Source: an uncultured Bryobacterales bacterium (GTDB lineage: Bacteria > Acidobacteriota > Terriglobia > Bryobacterales > UBA6623). From it: 64,000 bases of DNA. Position numbers and translations under genes: made by a program. The stretch covers positions 4,233,063-4,297,062 of the forward strand of contig OY282420.1 in NCBI GenBank assembly GCA_958295955.1. Direction: 5' to 3'. Below, one piece after another: positions 38,922 to 57,550 of the stretch; within the stretch, counting starts at the first letter, position 1; each line of letters begins with the position of its first letter. The notes beneath the pieces were generated by a model. It had not been told where the DNA came from. It saw only the letters and a program-made list of their open reading frames with translations, and searched no databases.

Positions 38922-39179
38922 GCGAAATTTTTCCATGCGAAGTCGGAGATCGTCTGGTCGCGGATAAACTGAACGCCTTATTCAGCCTGAATGACTGTTT
39001 CAATGACAGCCGTTGTCTTCGTGGGCCGGGAGACGCATTGCGGACGGCAGGTTTCCGCGTTCATGCGCGCGCGTACGGTTTCCACTCGGCCGGCGCGCGC
39101 ATCTCGATGCTGTTCCCGTGCTGCGGAGGCATCGAACCGGCGCCGCCCCTGCCCACGCGCATTTGAGGAGATTCCATGA

Positions 39180-40937
39180 ATGCCAATCCTACCCCCCCCC
39201 CCCCCCCCGCACAGCACGGTTGGCGTCTTTGGTTACCTCTGCTTGTGTCTGAACGTATTTTTCTTTAGCGCTCTCCTCGCTGCCGACCCGTGGATATTCA
39301 AGGCGCTGACCAGGGAAGACTACTGGGTGGAGAATCTCACCGCGGTCTGGTTTCTCCTGGCGGGCCTCTTGTTGTTCGTCACGGCCCGGGCGGAGCGGAG
39401 CTTCTTGCGGCGCTGCGTCTATATTCTCGGCGGCATGGCGATGGTCTTTGCCGCCGGCGAAGAAATCAGTTGGGGGCAGCGCATCTTCGGGTTTGCCACG
39501 CCCGATTTCTTGATGCCCTTGAATGCGCAGAAAGAATTCAATGTCCACAATATCAGCTACGGAACGTTTGACAGCATCTACAGGAATGGCGCGCTGATCC
39601 TGTGTATGGTAACCAGCGCGGCTTTCTTCTGTCGGAAAGACAGGCTTTGGGGGATTCCATTGCCGTCAATCCTGCTGATGCTGGGCTTTCTGCTATTACT
39701 TTCCTATGACTCAAGATTTGACCTCAGAGAATTCGTAGGATTTGGGGTTTTTAAGTTCTTGGGATTTATTGTTTTTAAGGAGAAGGGGCTGCTTCTTCTC
39801 TTGCTCATCTTCGCGTTGCTTTCAGGCCAAGTCAAATGGGTCGTTGCTCCCGCTGCAACCTTGGCGCTCGTTTTGGCTCTCTCCTATGTGAACTATCATA
39901 ATGTGTACTTCCATGGCCGCGCCCATCTTGGAAGCCTGTGGGAGGTGCGCGAGTATCTGTTCGGCATGGGCTGTCTTTTCTATTGTTTGGAACTCTTGCC
40001 GCCTCAGGGACGGTTAGCGGCAATCTCACGGACGTCATTCAGCGGCCTGAAGCTGCCGGGCGGACGGATTCCGTTTTGGATGATGACCTGCCGGCTGGTA
40101 ATTGCAGGCAGTATCGGGTTGATGTTTTTTGGGCATTTCAGCGCCATGTCCAGACCTGCCGCCTTCAAGGAGGCATACCGGTCAATCACGGCCAGCGAAC
40201 CGGCGGTCCGCTCCTACTTTGACGTATATCTCAGCGAGAACGAGTTGATCTACGTCAAGGAGCCATGCGCCCGCGCCGACACGGAGCCGGTGTTCTTCCT
40301 GCACCTATACCCGGTTGACGCGAACGACCTTCCCGAGCATCGCCGGCAATACAGCTTCGACAACCTGGACTTCGGTTTCGAAAGCCGCGGCACGATATTC
40401 GACAAGAGATGTATGGCGAGAGTCCCTCTCCCTGAGTATGATATTGCCCGCATCGGCGCCGGCCAGTACGTACACGTGGAAGGCGGTTACAACAACCTCT
40501 GGGAGGTGGAGTTCCGCCTTGATGACGGTGTCGCTCTGATTGTGAACGCCAAAGAGTCCCGCGAAGCGGCGCTCCGTTCTTACTACGAGACGTTAGTATC
40601 CGGCGAACCCGTAATGCGCTCCGACTTTGACGTATATCTCAGCGAAAACACGCTGACCTACGTCAAGGAGCCGTGCGCCTCGGCCGACACGGAGGCGTTG
40701 TTCTTTCTGCATCTGCGCCCGGTTGACGTGAACGACCTTCCCGACGATCGCAAGAAGAACGGCTTCGAAAACCGGGACTTCGATTTCGGCTGGCGCGGCA
40801 TGAGGCTTGGCGGGAGATGTATGGCGAGAATCCCTCTCCCGGAGTATGCTATTGCCCGCATCTCCACCGGCCAGTTCGTGACCGTGGAAGGCGGTTACAA
40901 CCACCTCTGGGAAGCGGAGATACACCTTGAACGGTAA
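39180..40937 (+). CDS. Orphan polytopic membrane protein (~10 TM) with C-terminal tandem-repeat soluble domain
   Basis: 585 aa. GAGGAG lies at 39165-39170. The N-terminal half is hydrophobic helices and includes AAGEEISWGQRIFGF. The C-terminal half is two ~136-aa repeats. Family not recognised. GC is visibly lower than the flanks. Confidence 0.7.
   Translation: MPILPPPPPPHSTVGVFGYLCLCLNVFFFSALLAADPWIFKALTREDYWVENLTAVWFLLAGLLLFVTARAERSFLRRCVYILGGMAMVFAAGEEISWGQRIFGFATPDFLMPLNAQKEFNVHNISYGTFDSIYRNGALILCMVTSAAFFCRKDRLWGIPLPSILLMLGFLLLLSYDSRFDLREFVGFGVFKFLGFIVFKEKGLLLLLLIFALLSGQVKWVVAPAATLALVLALSYVNYHNVYFHGRAHLGSLWEVREYLFGMGCLFYCLELLPPQGRLAAISRTSFSGLKLPGGRIPFWMMTCRLVIAGSIGLMFFGHFSAMSRPAAFKEAYRSITASEPAVRSYFDVYLSENELIYVKEPCARADTEPVFFLHLYPVDANDLPEHRRQYSFDNLDFGFESRGTIFDKRCMARVPLPEYDIARIGAGQYVHVEGGYNNLWEVEFRLDDGVALIVNAKESREAALRSYYETLVSGEPVMRSDFDVYLSENTLTYVKEPCASADTEALFFLHLRPVDVNDLPDDRKKNGFENRDFDFGWRGMRLGGRCMARIPLPEYAIARISTGQFVTVEGGYNHLWEAEIHLER
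39192..39208. repeat. Homopolymeric C17 tract
   Basis: Counted directly: 'a' followed by 9 C (39192-39200) and 8 C (39201-39208), then 'gc'. It lies in codons 5-10 of the 39180 ORF. Confidence 0.95.
40158..40937 (+). repeat. Tandem direct repeat, period 408 nt (two copies), coding
   Basis: TTTGACGTATATCTCAGCGA occurs at 40218 and 40626. Long stretches are identical between the copies (CTACGTCAAGGAGCC, GAGATGTATGGCGAGA, GTGGAAGGCGGTTACAAC), about 80% identity by eye. Confidence 0.85.
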
Positions 40938-41058
40938 CGACCTGCCCGGCCGGTGCAAGCAGCACGGTTTCGACAACCATAACTTCAACTTTTGGACGCA
41001 CGGCGGGAGAGGAGTCGAGACATGCCTGGCGGCAGTCCCTTTCCCTGGAAAACTTCAA
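40931..41058 (+). pseudogene. Decayed partial third copy of the repeat unit, out of frame, after the stop codon
   Basis: Translation of ORF 40927-41259 begins NGNDLPGRCKQHGFDNHNFNFWTHGGRGVETCLAAVPFPG. This aligns with repeat residues VDVNDLPDDRKKNGFENRDFDFGWRGMRLGGRCMARIPLPE. It is in a different frame from the 39180 ORF. Confidence 0.6.
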
Positions 41059-41249
41059 ATAAAATGCAACGAAATTGCACATAAAATGAAACGCCTCGCG
41101 CCCGCGGCGTTGGTTTTTACCTTCCTGGCGGGTCGGCGCCGTCGCCGCGATTTCCACCGGCCTCGGCGCCGGCGGGTGAATCGAATCGGCATGGCTCGGT
41201 TTTCAATAGGTGGAGTCCGTGGAGCGCAGCATCGGCAATCGGCGGTCTT

Positions 41250-43134: not shown

Positions 43135-43213
43135 GCCTCCATTTGTAACATGCGGCGCCGCGAACTTTTCCCTGCCGGCGATGGTGGACGGGACATCCGT
43201 TAGAATTGAGCCT

Positions 43214-45981: not shown

Positions 45982-46992
45982 GTGAAAGGCCATTCCATGA
46001 ACGTTGTTTTGCGATTACGATGGATTGCGGTCTCTGCGCTTGTCGGGTTAGCCGCTCTTGCCCCGGGCTTTGCTCAGGATCGAAGCGTGCGTATCGGCAC
46101 TGTCCTGGATGGCGATAGCCGCGCGGAGCTGGCGTTCCGTACAGCGGTGCAGGAAGAAGCGGGCCGGCTGTTGCGCACGCAGTTCGACGTCTCGTTTCCC
46201 AATGAAAAGCAACTCGTAGGCGACTGGTCCGCTGCACAGGCGCGCCGGAACGTGGATTTCCTGATCGAGGACCCGCAAATCGATGCCGTGCTCGTACTCG
46301 GCATCGTCGGCTCTTCGTATGTGGGGCGGCGGCCCGTCATCGCCAAGCCGGTCGTAGCCGCGATAGTCATCGACCCTGAGACGCAGGGCATTCCAATCGC
46401 GGTCAGAGAGCGCCCGGTTCCGGGACGAGTCGGCGTGGAGCGTGTTCGCGTCAGCGGCGTTCGCAATCTCAGCTATGTTGCCTATAGTCGAGACCTGGTT
46501 CGCGAAGTAGAGACTTTCAGGGAAATTACGGCGTTCTCCAGACTTGCGGTTCTCATGATCGAGGAGATCGAGAACGAGTTTCCGGACGTCCGCGAGACCG
46601 TGGCGCGAGATCTCGAAAAGATCGGGGTGGAAGCTACGGTCGTTCCCGTCGGCCTCTCCATCGAGCAAGCGTTGGCGCGCCTCCCCGACGGCGTCGAGGC
46701 GGTCATGCTGACGGGGATGCCGCAGTTGGGCGATAGAGAATTTCGGAGCCTCATCGGCGCTCTTCATGACAGGAAGCTGCCGACGTATTCACTCGAAGGG
46801 CAGCGGGATGTCCGCCGCGGGGCGATGGCGGGTCTCAAGGTTGACCGCAACGAGCTTTTTCTGGTGCGGCGAATCGTGCTGAACCTGTTCAGCGTTCTGC
46901 GCGGCGAGGAAGCCGCCGAGATTCCTGTCGACTTTCATAGTCGACGAACAACTGACGATCAACATGGCTTCGGCCCGAGCCGTAGGAGTTGA
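45982..46992 (+). CDS. Secreted ABC-type substrate-binding-protein-like domain protein (PF04392-like); 3' end apparently frameshifted
   Basis: Signal peptide VVLRLRWIAVSALVGLAALAPGFAQD, then a periplasmic-binding-fold-like body. The last 17 residues (SRRTTDDQHGFGPSRRS) look like out-of-frame sequence; see the finding at 46921-46995. Confidence 0.6.
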   Translation: MKGHSMNVVLRLRWIAVSALVGLAALAPGFAQDRSVRIGTVLDGDSRAELAFRTAVQEEAGRLLRTQFDVSFPNEKQLVGDWSAAQARRNVDFLIEDPQIDAVLVLGIVGSSYVGRRPVIAKPVVAAIVIDPETQGIPIAVRERPVPGRVGVERVRVSGVRNLSYVAYSRDLVREVETFREITAFSRLAVLMIEEIENEFPDVRETVARDLEKIGVEATVVPVGLSIEQALARLPDGVEAVMLTGMPQLGDREFRSLIGALHDRKLPTYSLEGQRDVRRGAMAGLKVDRNELFLVRRIVLNLFSVLRGEEAAEIPVDFHSRRTTDDQHGFGPSRRS

Positions 46993-48412
46993 CCCAACCT
47001 TCGGGCTGCTGACGGAGGCGGAGCTTGTCGCTGAGACCGGGACGCCGCCGGTCCGCCGGATATCGCTTGCCGATGTCGTGCGGGAGGCCGCGAACGTCAA
47101 TCTCGACCTCGCTTCGGCCGAGCGCCGTGTCGCTGCCGGTATGCAACAGGTGAAGGAGGCGCGTTCGAATCTACTTCCTCAAGCGAACGTCTCGAGCCTG
47201 GGGACGTTCATCGATGGAGACCGCGCAAGCGTCGTCCAAGGCAAGCGGCAGATGCTTGGCGCCGTGGGCGTCCGGCAGGTGGTCTATTCCGAACAGGCGC
47301 GCTCCGGCTACGATATCGAGCGGGAACTCCAGATTTCGCGCGAGGAAGAACGATTCCAAACGCGCCTGGACATCGTTTCGGAGGCCGCTCAGCAGTACCT
47401 CGCAGTGCTTCAGGCCAAGACGATCGAAAACATACAGAAAAAGAATCTGGCGGTGACGCGGTCGAACCTGGGTCTTTCGCGGGCGCGCGTCGACATCGGC
47501 ACGGCCGGGCGCGACGAAGTGCTCCGCTGGAGAAGCCAGATCGCGCAAGATCGGCGCAACGTGATCGCTGCCGCCGCCCAACGCAATCAAGCCGAGATCG
47601 CCGTGAACCGCATCCTCAACCGCGCTCTCGAAGAGCCTTTCGGCACGGTCGAGGCCGGGCTGGACGATCCCCAACTGACGGTGAACTTCGAGGTCTTGAG
47701 GCCATTCGTCGAACGGCCGGCCGCATTTAAGCTTTTCCGCGAGTTCATGACCAGGGAGGCGTTGGAGGCTTCGCCCGAGCTCCGGCAGCTTGACGCATCG
47801 ATTCGCGCCCAGGAGCGCTTCCTGCTCGCCGGCAAGCGGGCCTTCTACGTTCCGACGGTCAACCTCGATGCGCAGTTGCAGACGTTCAAGAACGGCGGCA
47901 GCCCGTCGCTTGCGTCAGAGATGGGCCCGAATGGCGTGAACTGGACGGTGGCGGTCGAGGCGTCGTTACCCATCTTCCAGGGCGGCGCGTTGCGGGCGCG
48001 GAAGACCCGGGCCGAGATTGATCTGGATCGGTTCACGATCGACCGCGAAGCGACTCGCCTGCTGATCGATCAAAGAATCCGTTCCTCCCTGCATCAAGCG
48101 GGCGCGTCGTTCGCCGGCATCGAACTGTCTCTGGAGGCGGCCGAGGCCGCGCGGGAAAACCTCGAACTGGTGCGCGCTTCCTACTCAGCGGGAGTCGTTG
48201 GGATCGTTCGTGTGCTGGACGCCCAAACGCAAGCCTTGTCAGCCGAGTTGGAAGCGGCCAACGCCGTATTCGACCACCTGATCGATCTGATGGAAGTGCA
48301 GCGCGCGGTCGGCCGTTTCGACTACTTCCGATCGCCCGACGAGCGCGGCGAGTTGATTCGCCGACTGGAGGTTTTTTTAGAGGAGAAAGGTTATGGTGCT
48401 CGCGGCAGCTAG
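46964..48412 (+). CDS. TolC-family outer membrane efflux protein (no signal peptide of its own as annotated)
   Basis: ISLADVVREAANVNLDLASAERRVAAGMQQVKEARSNLLPQ plus a second OEP repeat, LELVRASYSAGVVGIVRVLDAQTQALSAELEAANAVFD. The frame is open upstream to 46883. Confidence 0.8.
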   Translation: MASARAVGVDPTFGLLTEAELVAETGTPPVRRISLADVVREAANVNLDLASAERRVAAGMQQVKEARSNLLPQANVSSLGTFIDGDRASVVQGKRQMLGAVGVRQVVYSEQARSGYDIERELQISREEERFQTRLDIVSEAAQQYLAVLQAKTIENIQKKNLAVTRSNLGLSRARVDIGTAGRDEVLRWRSQIAQDRRNVIAAAAQRNQAEIAVNRILNRALEEPFGTVEAGLDDPQLTVNFEVLRPFVERPAAFKLFREFMTREALEASPELRQLDASIRAQERFLLAGKRAFYVPTVNLDAQLQTFKNGGSPSLASEMGPNGVNWTVAVEASLPIFQGGALRARKTRAEIDLDRFTIDREATRLLIDQRIRSSLHQAGASFAGIELSLEAAEAARENLELVRASYSAGVVGIVRVLDAQTQALSAELEAANAVFDHLIDLMEVQRAVGRFDYFRSPDERGELIRRLEVFLEEKGYGARGS

Positions 48413-49526
48413 CTCGAAACGCGCTCTGATGCTGTGCGCGCCGGCGGTCGTGCTTGCGGCGGCGGCATGTACGGACGACGCGCCGCCGCCCGAGGAAGCG
48501 CGGCCGCGGCCCGTCAAGTACGTCGAGGTTGCCGCTCAAAGCGGCGCTCGAACGCGAACGTTTACCGGTTTCGCCAAGGCGGACACTCGCTCCGAAGTCA
48601 GCTTTCGAGTTACGGGAACCATGCAGCGCGTTTACGTCGAGCAAGGGGATTTGATGGAAAAAGGAGATCTGATTGCGGAAGTAGACCCGGTCGATTTCGA
48701 GATTCAGGTCCGTGAGATCGAGGCGTCCCTGGCGGAAGCCAAGGCCCGGTATGTATTAGCGAACTCCGAGTTCCAGCGGATTCAGCGGCTCTACGAAAAG
48801 GACAACGCTTCGCAAGGGGACTTCGATTCCGCCTTGGCCAAGCGGGAGTCGGCCCGCGCCGGCGTGGAGTCGGTCGAGCACCAACTGGAACGCGCGCGGC
48901 GGCAGATCGAATACACCCGGCTCAAAGCGCCGTTCACCGGTGTCGTCGTTGTGGTCAAGATCGAGGAGGGCGAGAGCGTCCAAGCGGGCGCGCCGGTCGT
49001 GGAAGTTGCGACCGGCGAGAAGCCTCAGGTTGAGATCGCCGTGCCGGAAGTCGCGGTCGCCGACATCCGCAAGGGGGACTCCGCAAAGATCCGCTTCTCC
49101 GCTGTCCCCGGAAGAACGTTCATGGGCCGCGTAGCGACGCTGGGCGTGGTTCCGAGCGAAGGCGTAACGACTTACCCCGTCACGATTGAACTGAACCGGT
49201 CGTGGGAACAACTGGACGGGATATCGAGCCCTATACGGCCGGGCATGGCGGTCGAGGCTGAGATGCAGTTCGGCGCCGCCGGCGGATTGACTCACGTGGT
49301 TCCCGCCAACGCCGTCGTTGCGGACCGCGAAGGCAAGTTCGTTTACATCGTCGAAGACGCCGGCGACGGGACCGGCAACGCTTCCAAGCGTTCCGTCGAG
49401 ACCGGCCGACTCGTCCCGGCAGGTCTTGAAGTGGTCTCCGGCCTCAGCGAAGGAGAGAAGGTCATCACGGCGGGTTTGAACCGGATCAAAGACAGGCAGC
49501 CGGTGCGTTTGCTCCCTCAAGACTAG
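48393..49526 (+). CDS. Efflux RND periplasmic adaptor (membrane fusion protein), lipoprotein
   Basis: Lipobox LAAAAC, biotinyl-lipoyl-like VSFRVTGTMQRVYVEQGDLMEKGDLIAEVDP, a coiled-coil hairpin, and beta-barrel PGRTFMGRVATLG. Confidence 0.85.
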   Translation: MVLAAASSKRALMLCAPAVVLAAAACTDDAPPPEEARPRPVKYVEVAAQSGARTRTFTGFAKADTRSEVSFRVTGTMQRVYVEQGDLMEKGDLIAEVDPVDFEIQVREIEASLAEAKARYVLANSEFQRIQRLYEKDNASQGDFDSALAKRESARAGVESVEHQLERARRQIEYTRLKAPFTGVVVVVKIEEGESVQAGAPVVEVATGEKPQVEIAVPEVAVADIRKGDSAKIRFSAVPGRTFMGRVATLGVVPSEGVTTYPVTIELNRSWEQLDGISSPIRPGMAVEAEMQFGAAGGLTHVVPANAVVADREGKFVYIVEDAGDGTGNASKRSVETGRLVPAGLEVVSGLSEGEKVITAGLNRIKDRQPVRLLPQD

Positions 49527-49536
49527 CGAGGCATCC

Positions 49537-52500
49537 GTGGATTTGACGCGCTTCGCCATCGCCAATAACCGCGTTACGGCCGTGCTTCTGGCCGCCGTGC
49601 TGGTCGCCGGCTATAACGCATACGCCACGATGGAACAGGCGATGGATCCGGGCTTCACGATCCGCACCGCCCAAATCGTCACCCGCTTTCCCGGCGCCGG
49701 CCCCGACCGCGTCGAGGAATTGGTCACCGACAAAATCGAGACGGCGATCCAGGAACTGCCCGAACTGGATTTTGTCACCAGTACGTCGAAGACCGGCATT
49801 TCGATCGTTTCCGCGAACGTTCGGAACGAGTTCACCGCAATGCGCCCGATTTGGGACAACCTTCGCCGCAAGGTGAACCAGGCCGCGCGCAACCTGCCCG
49901 AAGGCGCTAACCCGCCCGAGATCAACGATGAGTTCGGCGACGTTTACGGAACGATCGTGGCGATTACCGGCGACGGGTTCAGCTACCGCGAGATGAAGGA
50001 CTTCGCCAAGCAGTTTCGGGATAGCCTGTTGCGGCTCGACAACGTCGGCAAGGTGGAGATCCGGGGCATTCAGGAAGAGCGCGTCTTTATCGAGTACAAC
50101 GACGCCCGTCTGGCTGAGTTGGATCTGTCGGTGAGCCAGGTCGGCCGGATCCTTCAGTCCCGCAACATCCTCATCTCGGGCGGAAGCCTGCTGGCGGGCG
50201 ACGAGCGGCTGGAATTGGAGCCGTCAGGCAGCTTCAACACCGTAGAAGAACTGCGTCGAACCGTCATCAGCGCGCCCAATCGACCCGACTTGCTCTACCT
50301 CGAAGACATCGCCGCGATCACGCGCGGCTACATCGATCCGCCTTCCGCAAAGGTGCGGGCGAACGGCCGGCCCGCGCTTGCGCTGGCGGTATCGTTGCGG
50401 CACGGCGGCAATGTCGTGACGCTGGGCGAAGAGGTCAAATCTCTCCTGGCCCGCGCGCGGAATCAGTACCCGGTCGGTATCGACCTCGAAATCGTTGCCT
50501 TCGAGCCCGAGCGAGTAGCGAAGAAGGTCAACGAATTCGCGGATAACGTGCTGCAGGCAGTGGTGATCGTCCTCGTGTCAATGCTCGTGATGCTCGGCTT
50601 GCGGACAGGGCTCGTGGTCGCCTCTCTCGTGCCGTCCGCCATGCTGATGAGCCTGATGGTCATGCAGTGGATGGGGCTGGGGCTGAACCAGATGAGTCTG
50701 GCCGCATTGATCATTGCTCTCGGCATGCTGGTCGACAACGCGATCGTGATGAGCGAATCGATCATGGTCTCGATGTCCGAGGGCGCGTCCCCGGTGGAGG
50801 CCGCCGTCAACTCGGCGAAAGAACTCCGCATTCCGCTGCTTACCTCGTCGCTGACGACTTCGGCTGCATTCTTGCCGATCTACTTGGCCGAAGGAACGAT
50901 GGGCGAGTACACCGGCGTCCTTTTCGTGGTCGTTACGATCGCCTTGCTGTGCTCGTGGCTGCTCGCGCTGACGGTCGTTCCGCTGCTCTGCGCGCGGTTT
51001 CTGCAAGTGAAGCCGGTTGCGGGCGGGGACGCCTTCGATACGCGGTTCTACCGCATCTACCGCAGCGTGTTGTTCGCGCTGCTGCGGTTCCCGCCGGTCT
51101 CGTGCGCACTGGCGCTTGCAATCTTCTTGCTCGCGATGCAGGGCTTCGGCTCGATCCCCAGTCTCTTCTTTCCGCCCGACGATACGCCGATGATGACCGC
51201 AAAACTCGAAGCGCCGCTTGGGACGTCGATCGAGAAGACCGAGCGGTTGGTCGCCGACCTGGACGAGTTCGTCGCGTCTGAGCTGCTGCGGACGGAAGAC
51301 CGCCCGGACGGGGTAGTCAACTGGTCGTCCTATGTCGGCCAAGGGGCGCCGCGATTCACGCTGTCGTATGCTCCTCCGCCATCGAGTCCGGAGTATGCGT
51401 ACCTGCTCTTCAACTTGACCTCGTCGGACGTCATTCCCGACTTCTCGCGCAGAATCGAGCAGTTTTGCGCTGAACGCTACCCGTCTGTCATTCCAACGGT
51501 CGGGCCGCTCGCTCTGGGTTCCGTCATCGCCAATCCGGTCGAAGTGCGCATCTCCGGCCCCGACCGCGGCCGAGTGTTCTCGTTGGTCGACTCCGTCAAG
51601 GCCCGGATGCAGTCCATCGAGGGAACGAAGAACATCAATGACGACTGGGGCCGCCAAATCAAGAAGTTGACCGTCGTCATCGACGAGCCTCGCGCCCGGC
51701 GAAGCGGGATCACCCATCAAGACGTCGCGATGTCACTGCAATCGGTGCTGAACGGACACCAGGCAACCGAATATCGCGAAGGAACCGAGTTGATCCCCGT
51801 CACGATTCGATCCATAGCGGCTAACCGCCAAGACGTGTCGAAGTTGGAGAGCCTGAACGTGTATTCCCAAAACCAGGGAACTGCCGTGCCGCTCATGCAG
51901 GTGGCGGACCTGGCGATCGAATGGCAGCCGGCGAAGCTCCTGCGGCGCGACCGTTTGACCGCCGTCACTGTCTCCAGCGAGCTCGGCGCCGGCGTGACGG
52001 CGCCGGCGATTACAACTCCACTCGCCGCATGGCTCGAAAAGGAGCAAGCCTCATGGCCGCCCGGATATTTCTACGAGCTGGGCGGCGAATTGGAGGAGTC
52101 CGCGAAGAGTCAGAAAGCGATCTCCGACAAGCTGCCGTACGCCGGATTGTTCATCGTGATCTTGCTGGTCGCGCAGTTCAACTCGGTCAGGAGACCGCTG
52201 ATTATTGTCATGACCATCCCGCTCGCGCTGGTCGGCGTCGTGATCGGCCTCTTGGCCGCGAAGTCCTATTTCGGCTTCATGACGTTACTCGGCTTGATTT
52301 CCCTGGCCGGCATCGTGATTAACAACGCCATCGTGCTGCTCGACCGGATTGCAATCGAGATCAATGACAACGGACGCGAGCCGCCGCACGCAATCATCGA
52401 GGCCGCGCAGCGCCGACTGCGCCCGATTCTGCTGACCACGGTGACGACCGTCGGCGGTTTGCTTCCGCTCTGGCTGGGAGGCGGGCCGATGTGGGAGAGC

Positions 52501-52629
52501 ATGGCGATCGCGATTATCTTCGGGCTGATCTTTGCGACGCTGTTAACGCTCGGCGTCGTTCCCGTGCTCTATGCGCTCTTTTTCCGGGTGAGCTTCAAGG
52601 GTTTCGAATACAGGCCCGAGAGGAGTTGA
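49537..52629 (+). CDS. RND efflux permease (AcrB/HAE family)
   Basis: 1030 aa with the 12-TM AcrB architecture. Motifs include ALGMLVDNAIVMSE and GIVINNAIVLLD. GTG start. Confidence 0.95.
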   Translation: MDLTRFAIANNRVTAVLLAAVLVAGYNAYATMEQAMDPGFTIRTAQIVTRFPGAGPDRVEELVTDKIETAIQELPELDFVTSTSKTGISIVSANVRNEFTAMRPIWDNLRRKVNQAARNLPEGANPPEINDEFGDVYGTIVAITGDGFSYREMKDFAKQFRDSLLRLDNVGKVEIRGIQEERVFIEYNDARLAELDLSVSQVGRILQSRNILISGGSLLAGDERLELEPSGSFNTVEELRRTVISAPNRPDLLYLEDIAAITRGYIDPPSAKVRANGRPALALAVSLRHGGNVVTLGEEVKSLLARARNQYPVGIDLEIVAFEPERVAKKVNEFADNVLQAVVIVLVSMLVMLGLRTGLVVASLVPSAMLMSLMVMQWMGLGLNQMSLAALIIALGMLVDNAIVMSESIMVSMSEGASPVEAAVNSAKELRIPLLTSSLTTSAAFLPIYLAEGTMGEYTGVLFVVVTIALLCSWLLALTVVPLLCARFLQVKPVAGGDAFDTRFYRIYRSVLFALLRFPPVSCALALAIFLLAMQGFGSIPSLFFPPDDTPMMTAKLEAPLGTSIEKTERLVADLDEFVASELLRTEDRPDGVVNWSSYVGQGAPRFTLSYAPPPSSPEYAYLLFNLTSSDVIPDFSRRIEQFCAERYPSVIPTVGPLALGSVIANPVEVRISGPDRGRVFSLVDSVKARMQSIEGTKNINDDWGRQIKKLTVVIDEPRARRSGITHQDVAMSLQSVLNGHQATEYREGTELIPVTIRSIAANRQDVSKLESLNVYSQNQGTAVPLMQVADLAIEWQPAKLLRRDRLTAVTVSSELGAGVTAPAITTPLAAWLEKEQASWPPGYFYELGGELEESAKSQKAISDKLPYAGLFIVILLVAQFNSVRRPLIIVMTIPLALVGVVIGLLAAKSYFGFMTLLGLISLAGIVINNAIVLLDRIAIEINDNGREPPHAIIEAAQRRLRPILLTTVTTVGGLLPLWLGGGPMWESMAIAIIFGLIFATLLTLGVVPVLYALFFRVSFKGFEYRPERS

Positions 52630-52786: not shown

Positions 52787-55700
52787 TTGTTGAAACTCAT
52801 AGCGCTGCAACTCACTCTTGCCTCGTTGCTGTTCGGGGCGCCGTCTCGCGACAAGCCCGTCGATTTCCAGAAGGACGTGCGGCCGACCCTGTCGGATCAG
52901 TGCTTCGCCTGTCACGGGCCCGATGAGAAGGCCCGCCAGGCCGGTCTGCGGCTGGACACGCGCGACGGCGCGTTCGCCGACCGCGGCGGCTACCGCGTGA
53001 TCGTTCCCGGCAACGCCGCCGCGAGCAGGCTGTACCGGCGCATCAGCCACGTCGATGAAACGGCGCGCATGCCGCCGCCGACGGCCGACCGCCGCCCCGG
53101 ACCGGAGCAGATCGAGACGATTCGCCGCTGGATCGATCAAGGCGCCGAATGGCGGACCCATTGGGCGTATGAGCCGCTCGACGGCAGCGGCGGCAGTTCC
53201 ATCGACGAGTTCGTCCGCGCCCGGCTTGGCGAAGAAGATCTGGCGCCCTCGCCCGAGGCGGACAAACGCACCCTGCTGCGCCGCCTGAGCTTCGATCTCA
53301 CCGGCCTGCCGCCCGACCCCGAGGATGTCGCCGCCTTTCTCGACGACCGTTCTCCTGAAGCCTATGAAAAGCAGGTCGACCGTCTGTTGCGCTCGCGGCG
53401 CTACGGCGAGCGCATGGCGCTGGAATGGCTCGACCTGGCGCGTTACGCCGATACGCACGGCTACCACATCGACAGCCGCCGCGAGATGTGGCCTTGGCGC
53501 GATTGGGTGATTCGCGCCTTCAACGAAAACAAGCCGTTCGACGAGTTCACCGTCGAGCAGATCGCGGGCGACCTGTTGCCCGATCCGACCCGCGATCAAC
53601 TCATTGCCACGGGCTTCAATCGCAACCACATGATCAACTTCGAGGGCGGCGCGATTCCCGAGGAGTACCACGTCGAGTACGTGATCGACCGCGTCGAGAC
53701 GGTATCGACCGTATGGATGGCGATGACGATGGGCTGCGCCCGCTGCCACGACCATAAATACGACCCCGTCAAGCAGCGGGAATTTTATGAGTTCTATGCG
53801 TTTTTCAACTCCATAGACGAAAAAGGTCTGGACGGCTCCACCGGCAACGCCGCGCCGGTACTGCCTCTTCCGGGGAAGGCGCAGGCGGAGCGGATCGACG
53901 AGCTCAAGGCGGCGATTCGCAGCGTCGAAGCCGACCTCCCGGCCGCGCGGATCGATCGGCAGGTCCGCGACTGGGAGCGCTTCGCGCGGGAGTCAATCCC
54001 GCGGGCCGCGCGGGAAGGTCTGGAAGGCCACTACGAAATGGAGGGCGGCTTTGCCGACTCCTCGGGCGGTTACCGCCACGGCCGCGTCATGCGCGGCGAG
54101 CCTCTCTTTCGAAAAGGCAACGCCGGGCTTGCCGCGAGCTTCGATATCGATACCCACGTCGTTTTCGACGGAACCGCCGCCGTGGACCTGTCGCAGCCGT
54201 TTACCGCCGCCTTCTGGATGCGCCCTGCGGGGCAAGTCGCCAAGCCGATTCTGCACAAAATGGACGATGCGCAGTCGGGGCGCGGCCTCGCCATCGCGCT
54301 GACCCGCCCGCAACCCATCCCCGACGCCCTGCGCAACGACTACGACATGATCGTCCGCCTGGCGTCTTCGCCCGAAGACGCGATTGTCGTCCAAACGAAA
54401 GAACCGCTGCACTCCGGCAAGGCTTACGCCGGCCTCTACCACGTCGCGCTTTCTTACGACGGTTCCGGAAAAGCCGGCGGCATTACGCTGCGCTTCAACG
54501 GCAAGCCGGCCGAGACAACGGTTCGTGAAGACTCGCTGCGCGGCTCGCCGCACGTCGAACGGCCCTTCGAAATCGGCGCCGGGCGCTTCGGCGGCCGCTA
54601 CACGGGCGCGCTGGACGACCTGCGCATCTATTCGCGCATGCTGACTGACCCCGAGATCGAGACGATCCGCGTCCACGAGCCGATTCGCGCGCTGCTGGCC
54701 GAGCCCTACGTCGCTTGCGCGGAGATTCTCGCAAACGCGCCGCCGCCGCCGGAGGACGATGTTTACGGAGCGAAGCCCGACAAGACCGTAAGCGAATGCA
54801 AAGCGAGAAAAGCCCGCCTGAAAGAATACTATCTGACTTATGCCGCGCCTGCATCCGAGCGGGCTCTCTACGCCCGTCTGCAAGCCTTGAACCGCGAGAA
54901 GAAGGCGCTGGAGAAGAAAATCCCCAACCTGATGGTGATGCGCGAGCTCAAGCAGCCGCGCGAGACGTTCATGCTGGGGCGGGGCGACTACCGCAACCGC
55001 GGCCGCAAGGTTGCGGCGAAGACCCCTTCGTGGCTGCCGCCGTTTCCGGACGGCGCTCCGCGCAACCGGCTGGGACTCGCCCGCTGGCTGGTCAGCCCCG
55101 ATCATCCGTTGACCGCGCGCGTGGCCGTCAACCGCTACTGGCAGATGCTGTTCGGTCAGGGCCTGGTGAAAACTTCGGAGGATTTCGGCTCGCAGGGAGA
55201 GACCCCTACCCATCCCGCATTGCTCGATTGGCTGGCGTCCGATTTCGCCGGCAACGGATGGGACATCAAGCGGCTCGTCAAGCAGATCGTCATGTCCGCG
55301 ACCTACCGGCAGGATTCGCGGTTGACGCCGGAGTTGCGCGAGCGCGACCCGGAAAACCGCCTGCTGGCCCGCGGCGCCCGCTACCGGCTTCCGGCCGAGT
55401 TTGTCCGCGACAACGCGCTGGCGGTTTCCGGGCTGTTGAACGACGCAATCGGGGGGCCGAGCGTGTTCCCCTATCAACCGGGCGGCATCTGGAAAGAGTT
55501 GGCCTACGGCGGTATGTTCACGGCTCAGGTTTACCGCCCCGACAGCGGCGCCGATCTCTATCGGCGAAGCCTCTACACCTTTTGGAAGCGCACGGTCCCG
55601 CCGCCGTCGCTGGGCGCTTTCGACGCTCCCGACCGCGAGAAGTGCATCGCGCGCCGCGCGCGGACCAACACGCCGCTCCAGGCGCTGGTGCTGATGAACG

Positions 55701-56017
55701 ACCCGACCTATGTCGAAGCATCCCGGGCGCTTGCCCAGAAGACGATCCTCGAGGGCGGACGCAGCCCGGTCGAGCGCATCCGTTACGCCTACCTGCGCGC
55801 CTTGGCCCGCGAGCCGAGCGCGGAAGAAACGCGCCTGCTCAGCGAGCTGTCCCGAGTCGAACGCGGCAAATTCCGCAAAGACCCCGAGCGGGCCGCGCGG
55901 CTTTTGGCAGTCGGCGATTCGGCTCGCGACCAACGGATCGCGCCCGACGAGCTGGCTGCATGGACCGCCGTCGCCGGCAGCATCCTCAATTTCGACGAAA
56001 CCATCAGCAAGGAGTAG
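52787..56017 (+). CDS. PSCyt1 (planctomycete cytochrome c) - DUF1549 - LamG-like - DUF1553 protein
   Basis: N-terminal FQKDVRPTLSDQCFACHGPDEKARQAGLRLD (single CxxCH). DUF1549-like DLARYADTHGYHIDSRREMWPWRDWVI and CARCHDHKYDP. Central LamG-like FTAAFWMRP...LDDLRIYSRML. The DUF1553-like C-terminus includes NRYWQMLFGQGLV. TTG start. Confidence 0.85.
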   Translation: MLKLIALQLTLASLLFGAPSRDKPVDFQKDVRPTLSDQCFACHGPDEKARQAGLRLDTRDGAFADRGGYRVIVPGNAAASRLYRRISHVDETARMPPPTADRRPGPEQIETIRRWIDQGAEWRTHWAYEPLDGSGGSSIDEFVRARLGEEDLAPSPEADKRTLLRRLSFDLTGLPPDPEDVAAFLDDRSPEAYEKQVDRLLRSRRYGERMALEWLDLARYADTHGYHIDSRREMWPWRDWVIRAFNENKPFDEFTVEQIAGDLLPDPTRDQLIATGFNRNHMINFEGGAIPEEYHVEYVIDRVETVSTVWMAMTMGCARCHDHKYDPVKQREFYEFYAFFNSIDEKGLDGSTGNAAPVLPLPGKAQAERIDELKAAIRSVEADLPAARIDRQVRDWERFARESIPRAAREGLEGHYEMEGGFADSSGGYRHGRVMRGEPLFRKGNAGLAASFDIDTHVVFDGTAAVDLSQPFTAAFWMRPAGQVAKPILHKMDDAQSGRGLAIALTRPQPIPDALRNDYDMIVRLASSPEDAIVVQTKEPLHSGKAYAGLYHVALSYDGSGKAGGITLRFNGKPAETTVREDSLRGSPHVERPFEIGAGRFGGRYTGALDDLRIYSRMLTDPEIETIRVHEPIRALLAEPYVACAEILANAPPPPEDDVYGAKPDKTVSECKARKARLKEYYLTYAAPASERALYARLQALNREKKALEKKIPNLMVMRELKQPRETFMLGRGDYRNRGRKVAAKTPSWLPPFPDGAPRNRLGLARWLVSPDHPLTARVAVNRYWQMLFGQGLVKTSEDFGSQGETPTHPALLDWLASDFAGNGWDIKRLVKQIVMSATYRQDSRLTPELRERDPENRLLARGARYRLPAEFVRDNALAVSGLLNDAIGGPSVFPYQPGGIWKELAYGGMFTAQVYRPDSGADLYRRSLYTFWKRTVPPPSLGAFDAPDREKCIARRARTNTPLQALVLMNDPTYVEASRALAQKTILEGGRSPVERIRYAYLRALAREPSAEETRLLSELSRVERGKFRKDPERAARLLAVGDSARDQRIAPDELAAWTAVAGSILNFDETISKE

Positions 56018-56024
56018 CGGCGCA

Positions 56025-57503
56025 ATGGACCCCCATCTCGAATACGAGCTTGCCGCCACGCGCCGCCAATTTTTCGGGCGGTCCGCAACGGGCATCGGCG
56101 CCGCGGCGCTTGCCTCGCTGCTCCAGCGGGACGGTTACGCCGCGCCCGCCGCGCCCCATGCCGAAACCGGGGGAGCCGAAACCGGCGGCTTGGCCGGCCT
56201 GCCGCACTTCGCGCCGCGGGCCAAGCGAGTCGTCTTTCTGTTCCAGTCCGGCGCGCCGTCGCAGATCGACCTGTTCGATTACAAGCCGCAACTGCGCAAG
56301 TTCCACAAGCAGGAGCTTCCCGACTCGATCCGCAGGGGGCAGCGCATCACCGGCATGACCGCGGGACAGGACAGCTTTCCGGTCGCCGCTTCGATCTTCA
56401 AGTTCCAGCGGCACGGCCGGAGCGGCGCCTGGCTCAGCGAGTTGCTCCCGCACACTGCCAAGATCGTCGACGACATCGCCCTGATCAAGACGATGCAGAC
56501 CGACGCCATCAACCACGACCCGGCGATCACCTTCATCAACAGCGGTTTTCAGCAGCCCGGACGCCCGTCGATGGGCGCCTGGGTGAGTTACGGCCTGGGG
56601 ACCGAGAACCAGGACTTGCCGGCTTTCGTCGTGCTCGTCTCTCAGGGCAGCAATAAAAACGCCGCGCAAGGAATCTTTTCGCGGCTGTGGGGGCCGGGGT
56701 TTCTGCCGTCGCGCTACCAGGGCGTCAAGTTCCGCTCGAGCGGAGATCCGGTGCTCTATCTGTCGAATCCGCCCGGCATGGCGGCCTCGACGCGGCGCAA
56801 CATCATCGACGTGGTGGCGCAGGTCAACCGCATGCGCGCCGAGCGGTTCGGCGACCCCGAAATCGAAACGCGCATCGCGCAGTACGAAATGGCCTACCGC
56901 ATGCAGACGTCGGTGCCCGAGCTGATGGATCTCGCCGGCGAGCCCGAGAGCACGTTCGCGCTCTACGGCGAGGACGCCCGCCGGCCCGGCAGCTACGCGG
57001 CGAACTGCCTGCTGGCGCGCCGCCTCATCGAGCGCGGCGTGCGCTTCGTCCAGCTTTATCACCGCGGCTGGGATCAGCACACCGACCTGCCGCGTGAAAT
57101 CCGCCTGCTGGCCGGCGATACCGACCGCGGCTCGGCGGCGCTCATCCAGGACCTCAAAAAGCGCGGCCTGCTCGAAGATACGCTCGTCGTCTGGGGCGGG
57201 GAATTCGGGCGCACCGTGTATTGCCAAGGCAAGCTCAGCGAGACCAACTACGGCCGCGATCACCACCCGCGCTGTTTCACCATGTGGATGGCCGGCGGCG
57301 GCGTCAAGCCCGGCATCGCCTACGGCGAGACGGACGATTATTCCTACAACGTCGTTGCCGACCCGATGCACGTTTACGACTTGCAGGCCACCATCCTGCA
57401 CTGTCTGGGCATCGATCACAAGAAGCTGACGTTCAAGCACCAAGGGCGGCATTTCCGCCTGACCGACGTTCACGGCAAGGTCGTCGAGCCGCTTCTGGCC
57501 TAG
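56025..57503 (+). CDS. DUF1501 protein (sulfatase-fold, Tat signal)
   Basis: TRRQFFGRSATGIGAAALASLL twin-arginine signal. Contains VVFLFQSGAPSQIDLFDYKP and GGEFGRT...GRDHH typical of DUF1501. Sits immediately downstream of its usual DUF1553 partner. Confidence 0.85.
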   Translation: MDPHLEYELAATRRQFFGRSATGIGAAALASLLQRDGYAAPAAPHAETGGAETGGLAGLPHFAPRAKRVVFLFQSGAPSQIDLFDYKPQLRKFHKQELPDSIRRGQRITGMTAGQDSFPVAASIFKFQRHGRSGAWLSELLPHTAKIVDDIALIKTMQTDAINHDPAITFINSGFQQPGRPSMGAWVSYGLGTENQDLPAFVVLVSQGSNKNAAQGIFSRLWGPGFLPSRYQGVKFRSSGDPVLYLSNPPGMAASTRRNIIDVVAQVNRMRAERFGDPEIETRIAQYEMAYRMQTSVPELMDLAGEPESTFALYGEDARRPGSYAANCLLARRLIERGVRFVQLYHRGWDQHTDLPREIRLLAGDTDRGSAALIQDLKKRGLLEDTLVVWGGEFGRTVYCQGKLSETNYGRDHHPRCFTMWMAGGGVKPGIAYGETDDYSYNVVADPMHVYDLQATILHCLGIDHKKLTFKHQGRHFRLTDVHGKVVEPLLA

Positions 57504-57533: not shown

Positions 57534-57550
57534 ATCGAAACGGGGAACCC

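Follow-up and report, generated by a model that had tools for sequence, protein, structure and literature searches.

The split gene and its homologues

The window analysed here is a 64,000-nt stretch of contig OY282420.1 from an uncultured Bryobacterales bacterium, and all coordinates are given in its numbering. Comparison with homologues indicates that two overlapping open reading frames (ORFs) on its forward strand, ORF1 with a binding-protein-like product and ORF2 with a TolC-like product, are the halves of one gene located at 45997-48412 and comprising 804 codons after removal of one base. The gene is read here, with a probability of roughly 0.8, as a pseudogene, a young loss-of-function allele that has not become fixed and still segregates in the population. 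The ORFs and the parts of the gene are as follows.

45982-46992, forward strand: ORF1, frame 1, from the ORF list and its translation
45997-46935, forward strand: 5' part of the fused gene, frame 1, coding the signal peptide and residues 1-283 of the binding-protein fold in the numbering of the intact orthologue P0001, located by tblastn of P0001
45997-46074, forward strand: predicted Sec signal peptide MNVVLRLRWIAVSALVGLAALAPGFA followed by Q, placed from hydropathy and from conservation in homologues of about 804 aa
46936-46992, forward strand: out-of-frame tail of ORF1, HSRRTTDDQHGFGPSRRS, and stop codon (TGA at 46990-46992), with no counterpart in homologues
46937-47032, forward strand: last beta-strand (QLTINM) and terminal helices of the binding-protein fold, frame 2, placed from the AlphaFold2 (AF2) model, Pfam and profile matches to the PDB
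46964-46966, forward strand: annotated ATG start of ORF2, the conserved internal Met of LTINMA, found in the family consensus DEQLTINMATARA
46964-48412, forward strand: ORF2 (TolC-like), frame 2, 482 aa
47063-48412, forward strand: TolC-family outer-membrane factor (OMF) part with two OEP repeats, frame 2, from Pfam, PDB profile matches and Foldseek

The products of ORF1 (called at 301/336 aa) and ORF2 (482 aa) had been called as two genes, and the 482-aa product is on record as P0076 from a 4,441,625-bp contig (NCBI and ENA), identical to the annotation. By translation, the C-terminus of ORF1 reads ...EIPVDFHSRRTTDDQHGFGPSRRS, given at length as ...AAEIPVDFHSRRTTDDQHGFGPSRRS, before the stop codon, and frame 2 is open upstream of the annotated start as far as 46883 and reads ...STFIVDEQLTINMASARAVGVDPTFGLLTEAELV.

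With the repaired full-length protein as the query, 74 homologues were found, most of them 770-830 aa in length and covering 95-100% of the protein. More than sixty of about 800 aa were uninterrupted, including the orthologue P0001 at 97% identity, and several carried precomputed matches to both PF04392 and PF02321. Relatives with a named organism came from Bryobacterales and Terriglobia metagenome-assembled genomes (MAGs; 67-81% identity) and from one Myxococcota MAG (35%). A tblastn comparison of intact P0001 with the window placed residues 1-283 in frame 1 (46087-46935) and residues 283-774 in frame 2 (46934-48409). A preliminary description of this DNA had proposed a single fusion gene of a binding-protein-like and a TolC part, split by a frame-disrupting lesion inside 46921-46995, and both the uninterrupted homologues and the frame switch bear this out. 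Measured against these homologues, the split of the ORFs is far beyond chance. The N-terminal domain (46087-46932) was also searched against 1.84 billion cluster representatives, giving 1272 matches at E<=1e-3; most of the best 150 of these 1272 were about 800 aa with the domain at residues ~30-300, which argues that the fused architecture is the rule for this N-domain subfamily.

The repaired gene read from ATG 45997 has 804 codons and a stop, and 804 aa is the commonest length among the homologues. Two of these, P0002 and P0006, start MSVVLRFRR... and MMKILIRLRR..., aligning to MNVVLRLRW at 45997, and the leader MNVVLRLRWIAVSALVGLAALAPGFA followed by Q is conserved among the 804-aa homologues. 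From these alignments, ATG 45997 is probably the true start. Gene callers used GTG 46087 in every strain, giving the 774- and 301-aa products and dropping the conserved signal peptide. Export signals were judged by inspection and by Kyte-Doolittle hydropathy (11-residue means). The N-terminus of ORF1 reached a maximum of 2.41 and was Sec-signal-like, while no hydrophobic leader was found at the N-terminus of ORF2 (maximum 1.27), in agreement with the earlier remark that ORF2 is leaderless and the upstream ORF carries a signal. The export signal expected of an OMF is therefore not on the 482-aa product and occurs only on the repaired gene at 45997-46074. In the family alignment ATG 46964 is a conserved internal Met and no genuine start. 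In an annotation, the two calls would best be combined into one gene that starts at ATG 45997 and is marked as frameshifted.

As modelled, the repaired protein is a Sec signal peptide, a periplasmic binding protein (PBP)-fold domain of ~290 aa that is distantly PF04392-like, a short linker and a TolC-family OMF. The frame-2 product matched PF02321 (OEP) in two stretches with E=5.1e-44 and 150.8 bits against a cut-off of 22, and the same family was matched by all 48 aligned homologues. The family profile matched TolC in the PDB at ~1e-32, as well as 3lkv (5.9e-8) and 3lft (2.6e-6), the latter two nearly end to end with the alignments running to chain residues 298/302 and 292/295, respectively. 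The expectation that the binding-protein part belongs to PF04392 held only indirectly. Neither ORF1 alone nor the repaired protein matched PF04392 in Pfam at E<=0.1, and P0001 aligned at residues 139-311 to positions 119-289 of 293 in the hidden Markov model with 21.2 bits, below the gathering score of 25.9. The relationship emerged through the family, in which 29 of the 48 members matched PF04392 at E<=0.01 (best 2.3e-8), and through the predicted fold. The C-terminal motif given for such proteins in the preliminary description also matches the family's ...PV(D/E)...L(T/V)IN...A...G(V/I)....

The structure model was that of P0001 from AF2, with a pLDDT of 88.5. Foldseek searches with it returned 3lft (target-normalised TM-score, TMt, 0.77-0.78), 3lkv (0.76) and CD0873 (6hni, 0.74) over about 320 aligned columns. 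For the OMF part, 1ek9, 2xmn and 7ng9 were returned at TMt 0.82-0.85, the range with 1wp1 included being 0.73-0.85 (E ~1e-19). A strand at residues 287-292 (QLTINM), helices at 293-299 and 305-310 and a strand at 312-314 all lie past the shift site at residue 283. The model thus places these elements (287-314) in the TolC frame, as the preliminary description had said of the strand and helix that close the binding-protein fold.

A gene fission could also be imagined, in which the two ORFs, each of them long and called as a gene, now work separately as an unattached periplasmic binding protein and an unattached TolC. This is most improbable. The ORF1 product is missing the last strand and helices of its fold and has 19 nonsense residues at its end, ORF2 is without a signal peptide and starts within the binding-protein domain, and no homologue is split into two such genes with a leader on the TolC half.

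The junction between the two frames

Three features define the junction.

46927-46932, forward strand: first GTCGAC hexamer, the V-D codons of the conserved PVDF motif; native and present in all intact haplotypes
46933-46936, forward strand: lesion, TTTC where intact alleles have TTC (or TTT), shifting frame 1 to frame 2
46940-46945, forward strand: second GTCGAC hexamer, the V-D codons of VDEQLTIN in frame 2; native and able to pair with the first

The haplotypes used for comparison were all from one HiFi metagenome assembly (ERZ19489113). In the window the two hexamers enclose the spacer TTTCATA, and the DNA across the junction is CCTGTCGAC-TTTC-ATA-GTCGAC. Intact orthologues keep both hexamers with a 6-nt spacer and read CCT GTC GAC TTC ATG/ATA GTC GAC GAA (PVDF[M/I]VDE). 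These include L002, a circular contig of 4.5 Mb with 98.8% identity to the window, in which the gene is intact and TTCATG lies between the hexamers. The spacers were TTCATG in L002/L014, TTCATA in L003 and L015, TTTATA in L004 and TTTCATA in the window, L001/L013, L006 and L007. Of the six intact 774-aa proteins, five have PVDFIVDEQ, exactly what the window would encode with one base fewer. Homologue proteins across the junction read PVDFMVDEQLTIN, PVDFIVDEQLTIN, PVDFIIDEQ and PVDFPIDEQ, the consensus of the 48-member family alignment is LPVDFxxDEQLTINM, and the reading-frame switch in the tblastn alignment of P0001 maps exactly to Phe283. By this comparison the lesion is one extra base, a T, in TTTC at 46933-46936.

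The hexamer positions, spacer, ORF coordinates and upstream extent of frame 2 in the preliminary description were all correct on recheck. It had proposed in addition that a micro-insertion of 13 nt at 46933-46945, consisting of the 7-nt spacer and one GTCGAC copy, arose by duplication between the GTCGAC repeats and split the gene. The hexamer is indeed present twice, 13 nt apart, and the frames do join into one ORF when 46933-46945 is deleted, as was confirmed by building the sequence. Such a repair was rejected as it removes F-x-V-D, four residues kept by all 48 aligned family members (as F-x-V/I-D). The orthologue comparison that had been suggested as a check went against the proposal, with both hexamers and a 6-nt spacer in the intact orthologue DNA, so that 12 of the 13 nt are native and one base is extra. 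Both V-D pairs are conserved in homologues and both hexamers are therefore native. In more distant relatives the same peptide is specified by different codons (GTTGAC...ATTGAC, GTCGAT...GTGGAC, ATAGAC...GCGGAC and GTTGAT...TTGGAC), and 6-mer direct repeats with a spacer of <=10 nt arise about once per 100 nt in the window. On codon usage across these relatives, the GTCGAC pair results from chance in the choice of codons in this species, and a 13-nt insertion has next to no likelihood.

GTCGAC is self-complementary, and RNA folding gave an 8-bp stem with the shift site in its loop. Across nine haplotype sequences including the window, the spacer was the most variable 8-nt segment in 7.5 kb, with the five alleles TTCATG, TTCATA, TTTATA, TTTCATA and TTCCTAA. 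The last of these, a different 7-nt spacer found in L005, has the same effect on the frame and from its sequence is most simply explained as an independent event; it makes perfect 8-bp inverted arms (GTCGACTT/AAGTCGAC), and its predicted parent would be an intact allele TTCCTA. Quasi-palindrome template switching was considered and set aside, as it fits this L005 allele and not the window allele TTTCATA. Slippage or faulty repair within the 6 nt that separate the palindromic hexamers probably gave rise to the window mutation. A hairpin-loop hotspot is a reasonable but unproven idea, in which the hexamers may matter indirectly and not as insertion boundaries. That the spacer is a hotspot repeatedly switching the channel gene off in co-existing strains, with two +1 alleles and at least four further independent lesions elsewhere, is a tentative and rather doubtful proposal. 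If true, the hotspot could reflect selection for losing a surface-exposed protein, for example in phage or bacteriocin escape, and the UUU_C allele might permit a trickle of wild-type protein by a +1 slip.

Other differences were seen around the hexamers and the gene start. L005 has a 73-nt insertion after 45909, ~90 nt upstream of the gene start, with no copy elsewhere in the window. L015 carries a restriction-modification pair (RE_AccI and N6_Mtase/Eco57I) between the sulfatase and GH88 genes (L015 5974-8467) that is absent from the window. The AccI site GTMKAC includes GTCGAC, and L015 has GTTGAC at the second hexamer. A link between the junction and this AccI-type island was rejected, GTMKAC sites being as many in L015 as in other haplotypes with no depletion.

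Broken and intact alleles in the population

At least fifteen haplotypes were represented in the protein collection, six intact (L002/L014 and five further 774-aa proteins), five with a 7-nt spacer and four broken elsewhere (9/15 broken). The lesions elsewhere were a 1-nt deletion at about 46737-46739 (window-equivalent) in L003, a nonsense substitution TCG>TAG at 47477-47479 together with indels in L004, where 48198-48824 is also affected, multiple indels in L015 (46450-49160) and a 337-aa truncation after ...ADVVR on a 1.49-Mb contig (P0087). L001/L013 has a second lesion besides its TTTCATA spacer, a 13-nt deletion, TAGCCGCTCTTGC, in the signal-peptide codons at the equivalent of 46049-46061. 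The downstream gene for the periplasmic adaptor (membrane fusion protein, MFP) was also broken in L004 and L015, and the gene for the resistance-nodulation-division (RND) transporter was intact across all haplotypes examined. In a Terriglobia MAG (L010; OZ244053.1, 3001-5293) the homologous gene is split at residue 185/186 from frame 1 to frame 2, which reflects either a separate disruption or a misassembly of that MAG. The pattern hints at repeated loss of the channel in the population, and the lesions of the other haplotypes could reflect such loss or could partly be noise from low-quality haplotigs. A natural population in which this gene is repeatedly broken, the adaptor gene too in two haplotypes, with the RND transporter left intact, is of interest in itself.

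Judged by the haplotype sequences, the extra base is probably a real mutation. The alternative of a sequencing or assembly error would have the genome carry TTCATA and the extra T be a consensus artefact. The HiFi assembly is strain-rich, some of its haplotigs (L004, L015) have many 1-nt indels, and haplotype-aware read correction could conceivably copy alleles between near-identical strains. Against this, the same insertion stands on four contigs with distinct backgrounds (the window, L001/L013, L006 and L007, mutually different at 45-64 single-nucleotide polymorphisms over 7 kb) and a second 7-nt allele stands on a fifth. The site is a run of two to three T's and no long homopolymer, and L004 also has a nonsense substitution, which is atypical for indel-type errors. 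Over ~17 kb the window differed from L013 by an intergenic 1-nt indel (43187), the 13-nt leader deletion in L013 (46049-46061) and a 15-nt in-frame indel, with no other coding frameshift outside this gene. The differences from L014 over a similar ~17 kb were a 6-nt indel, the intergenic base at 43187, the extra T (46933) and, shortly before a gene start, a 1-nt indel at 57542. Only these indels were found in the clean contigs (L013, L014), where this gene is thus the only one with frame-breaking indels. An artefact is regarded as unlikely. Scans of genome contigs and metagenome contigs for exact copies of both alleles gave 0 matches.

Of the three options offered in the preliminary description (pseudogene, sequencing or assembly error, recoding), the pseudogene fared best. 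The extra base in the TTC-ATA pair (TTTC-ATA, 46933-46939) moves translation into another frame at Phe283. Translation from the real start would then yield an exported, truncated binding-protein domain without its last strand and helices, with the junction peptide EIPVDFHSR and a 19-residue nonsense tail ending at the stop at 46992. The TolC part would be makeable only from the internal ATG 46964, leaderless and unable to reach the outer membrane. A truncated binding-protein domain and an unexportable TolC part together would make this a loss-of-function allele, one that appears to coexist with intact and independently broken alleles in a natural population.

Several observations weigh against the pseudogene. 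The comparison haplotypes stem from one HiFi metagenome assembly, and L004 and L015 are full of 1-nt indels, so there is some assembly noise in the data set. The carriers, except L001, have no further disabling mutation. Variants private to the carriers within the gene were 11 nonsynonymous:19 synonymous, like the neighbouring intact genes, and only two private substitutions, D62Y and P528S, fell at strongly conserved positions. This ratio gives no sign of relaxed selection and would also fit a still-working gene. The ratio and the few changes at conserved sites therefore suggest an allele that is young, has been moved by recombination or is recurrent.

In the recoding alternative, a +1 shift would occur at GAC-UUU-C with the P-site tRNA-Phe moving from UUU to UUC and translation continuing with AUA-GUC-GAC, either programmed or at a useful leaky level. 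The full-length protein so made would be ~85 kDa with the ancestral PVDFIVDEQ, the junction ...EIPVDFIVDEQLTINM... and the peptide EIPVDFIVDEQLTINMASAR as in the intact allele. Schwartz and Curran reportedly found in 1997 that UUU followed by a pyrimidine is prone to +1 shifts in E. coli. The slip would restore the wild-type peptide exactly, and the carriers retain a purifying-like ratio of nonsynonymous to synonymous changes. Compensatory low-level frameshifting on indel alleles is, moreover, a recognised class (PMC5009743). The shift is not conserved, however, all orthologues and more than sixty homologues being single-frame here. The A site holds no stop or rare codon (CAU is 9/33 of the His codons), AUA, which would be read next in the +1 frame, is the least used of the Ile codons (6/155), and UUU_C occurs in frame 13 times in 3000 ordinary codons. 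L001 has in addition its second lesion in the leader. No Shine-Dalgarno-like element was found close upstream of the shift site and no Rfam element matched there, and among the signals of programmed frameshifting that were sought (codon rarity, Shine-Dalgarno, Rfam and downstream structure) none was convincing. Recoding is hence regarded as very unlikely, and the pseudogene remains the preferred reading.

The operon and comparison with known systems

The fused gene is the first gene of an OMF-MFP-RND efflux operon. The genes directly downstream, which provide the genomic partnership expected of a TolC-family OMF, are as follows.

48393-49526, forward strand: MFP (periplasmic adaptor) gene, its start overlapping the end of the fused gene by 20 nt, from the ORF list
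49537-52629, forward strand: RND inner-membrane transporter gene, 1030 aa, from the ORF list, with ACR_tran on orthologues

Orthologues of the MFP carry precomputed Pfam matches to BSH_RND, HH_MFP_RND and YknX_C. No ATP-binding cassette (ABC) genes were found within about 10 kb of the orthologous loci, where the neighbours were sulfatase, GH88, MFP, RND and PSCyt/DUF1501 genes.

The surroundings of the operon also vary among haplotypes. At 43187, just upstream of the sulfatase start, the window is without an A that is present in all covering haplotypes (L002/L014, L004, L013 and L015); the sulfatase ORF is 482 aa in the window and was called at 452 aa elsewhere, and the site is probably intergenic. 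L014 (16700-17272), a 4.5-Mb genome that is otherwise intact, is without ~4.1 kb of the window (52987-57121). As a result the beginning of its PSCyt1/PSD1 gene runs directly into the last part of the DUF1501 gene, and the joined product is 190 aa long. Upstream of the operon lie tandem paralogous genes of ~450-590 aa with no Pfam family and 83-91% mutual identity (window 39129-41175; L014 1-4844; L013 1-3438), whose copy number varies by haplotype and reaches four in L014.

OMFs with an N-terminal PF04392-like domain appear from the sequence searches to form a large, widespread family with hundreds of 50%-identity clusters. Members were seen in Acidobacteriota, Planctomycetota-labelled MAGs, Bacteroidota (Lewinella) and Myxococcota (P0001-P0074, P0096-P0243), and no description of the fusion architecture was found in the literature. 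The frameshift event itself is ordinary; the protein family is uncharacterised but widespread, and a large OMF family with a binding-protein-fold N-domain is worth attention.

The fused protein resembles the TolC/OprM-family OMFs (PF02321) of tripartite RND pumps in its two OEP repeats and TolC-like predicted fold, and in the position of its gene directly upstream of the MFP and RND genes with a stop/start overlap. It differs in the ~290-aa binding-protein-fold domain that separates the signal peptide from the first TolC helix, an extra N-terminal domain absent from every solved OMF among the matches, and the window gene differs further in being frameshifted. With the PF04392 (ABC_sub_bind) proteins 3LFT, 3LKV and CD0873 (6HNI) the N-terminal domain shares the predicted fold across essentially the whole target and a weak but significant profile similarity. 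Unlike them it is fused to an OMF, and its gene adjoins MFP and RND genes instead of genes for an ABC permease or ATPase; P0001 scores below the gathering score, and ligand binding by the domain is putative only.

In comparison with programmed +1 frameshifting of the prfB type and with compensatory frameshifting, a +1 shift is likewise needed here, and sterically the tRNA in the P site could slip from UUU to UUC. The junction differs from the prfB type in having no A-site stop or hungry codon and no upstream Shine-Dalgarno stimulator, and in a shift that is conserved in no relative. As in hairpin and quasi-palindrome mutation hotspots, the lesion lies in the loop between self-complementary hexamers and at the most variable spot, whereas the window allele gives no better palindrome, the hairpin is not conserved in other species and the mechanism would be a matter of inference. 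Polymorphic frameshift pseudogenes offer a further comparison. While the diversity of the carriers has so far lacked the relaxed constraint of such pseudogenes, the window gene is like them in having intact orthologues and a lesion that falls within a conserved domain, in the intact alleles found alongside it and in the additional lesions of some carriers.

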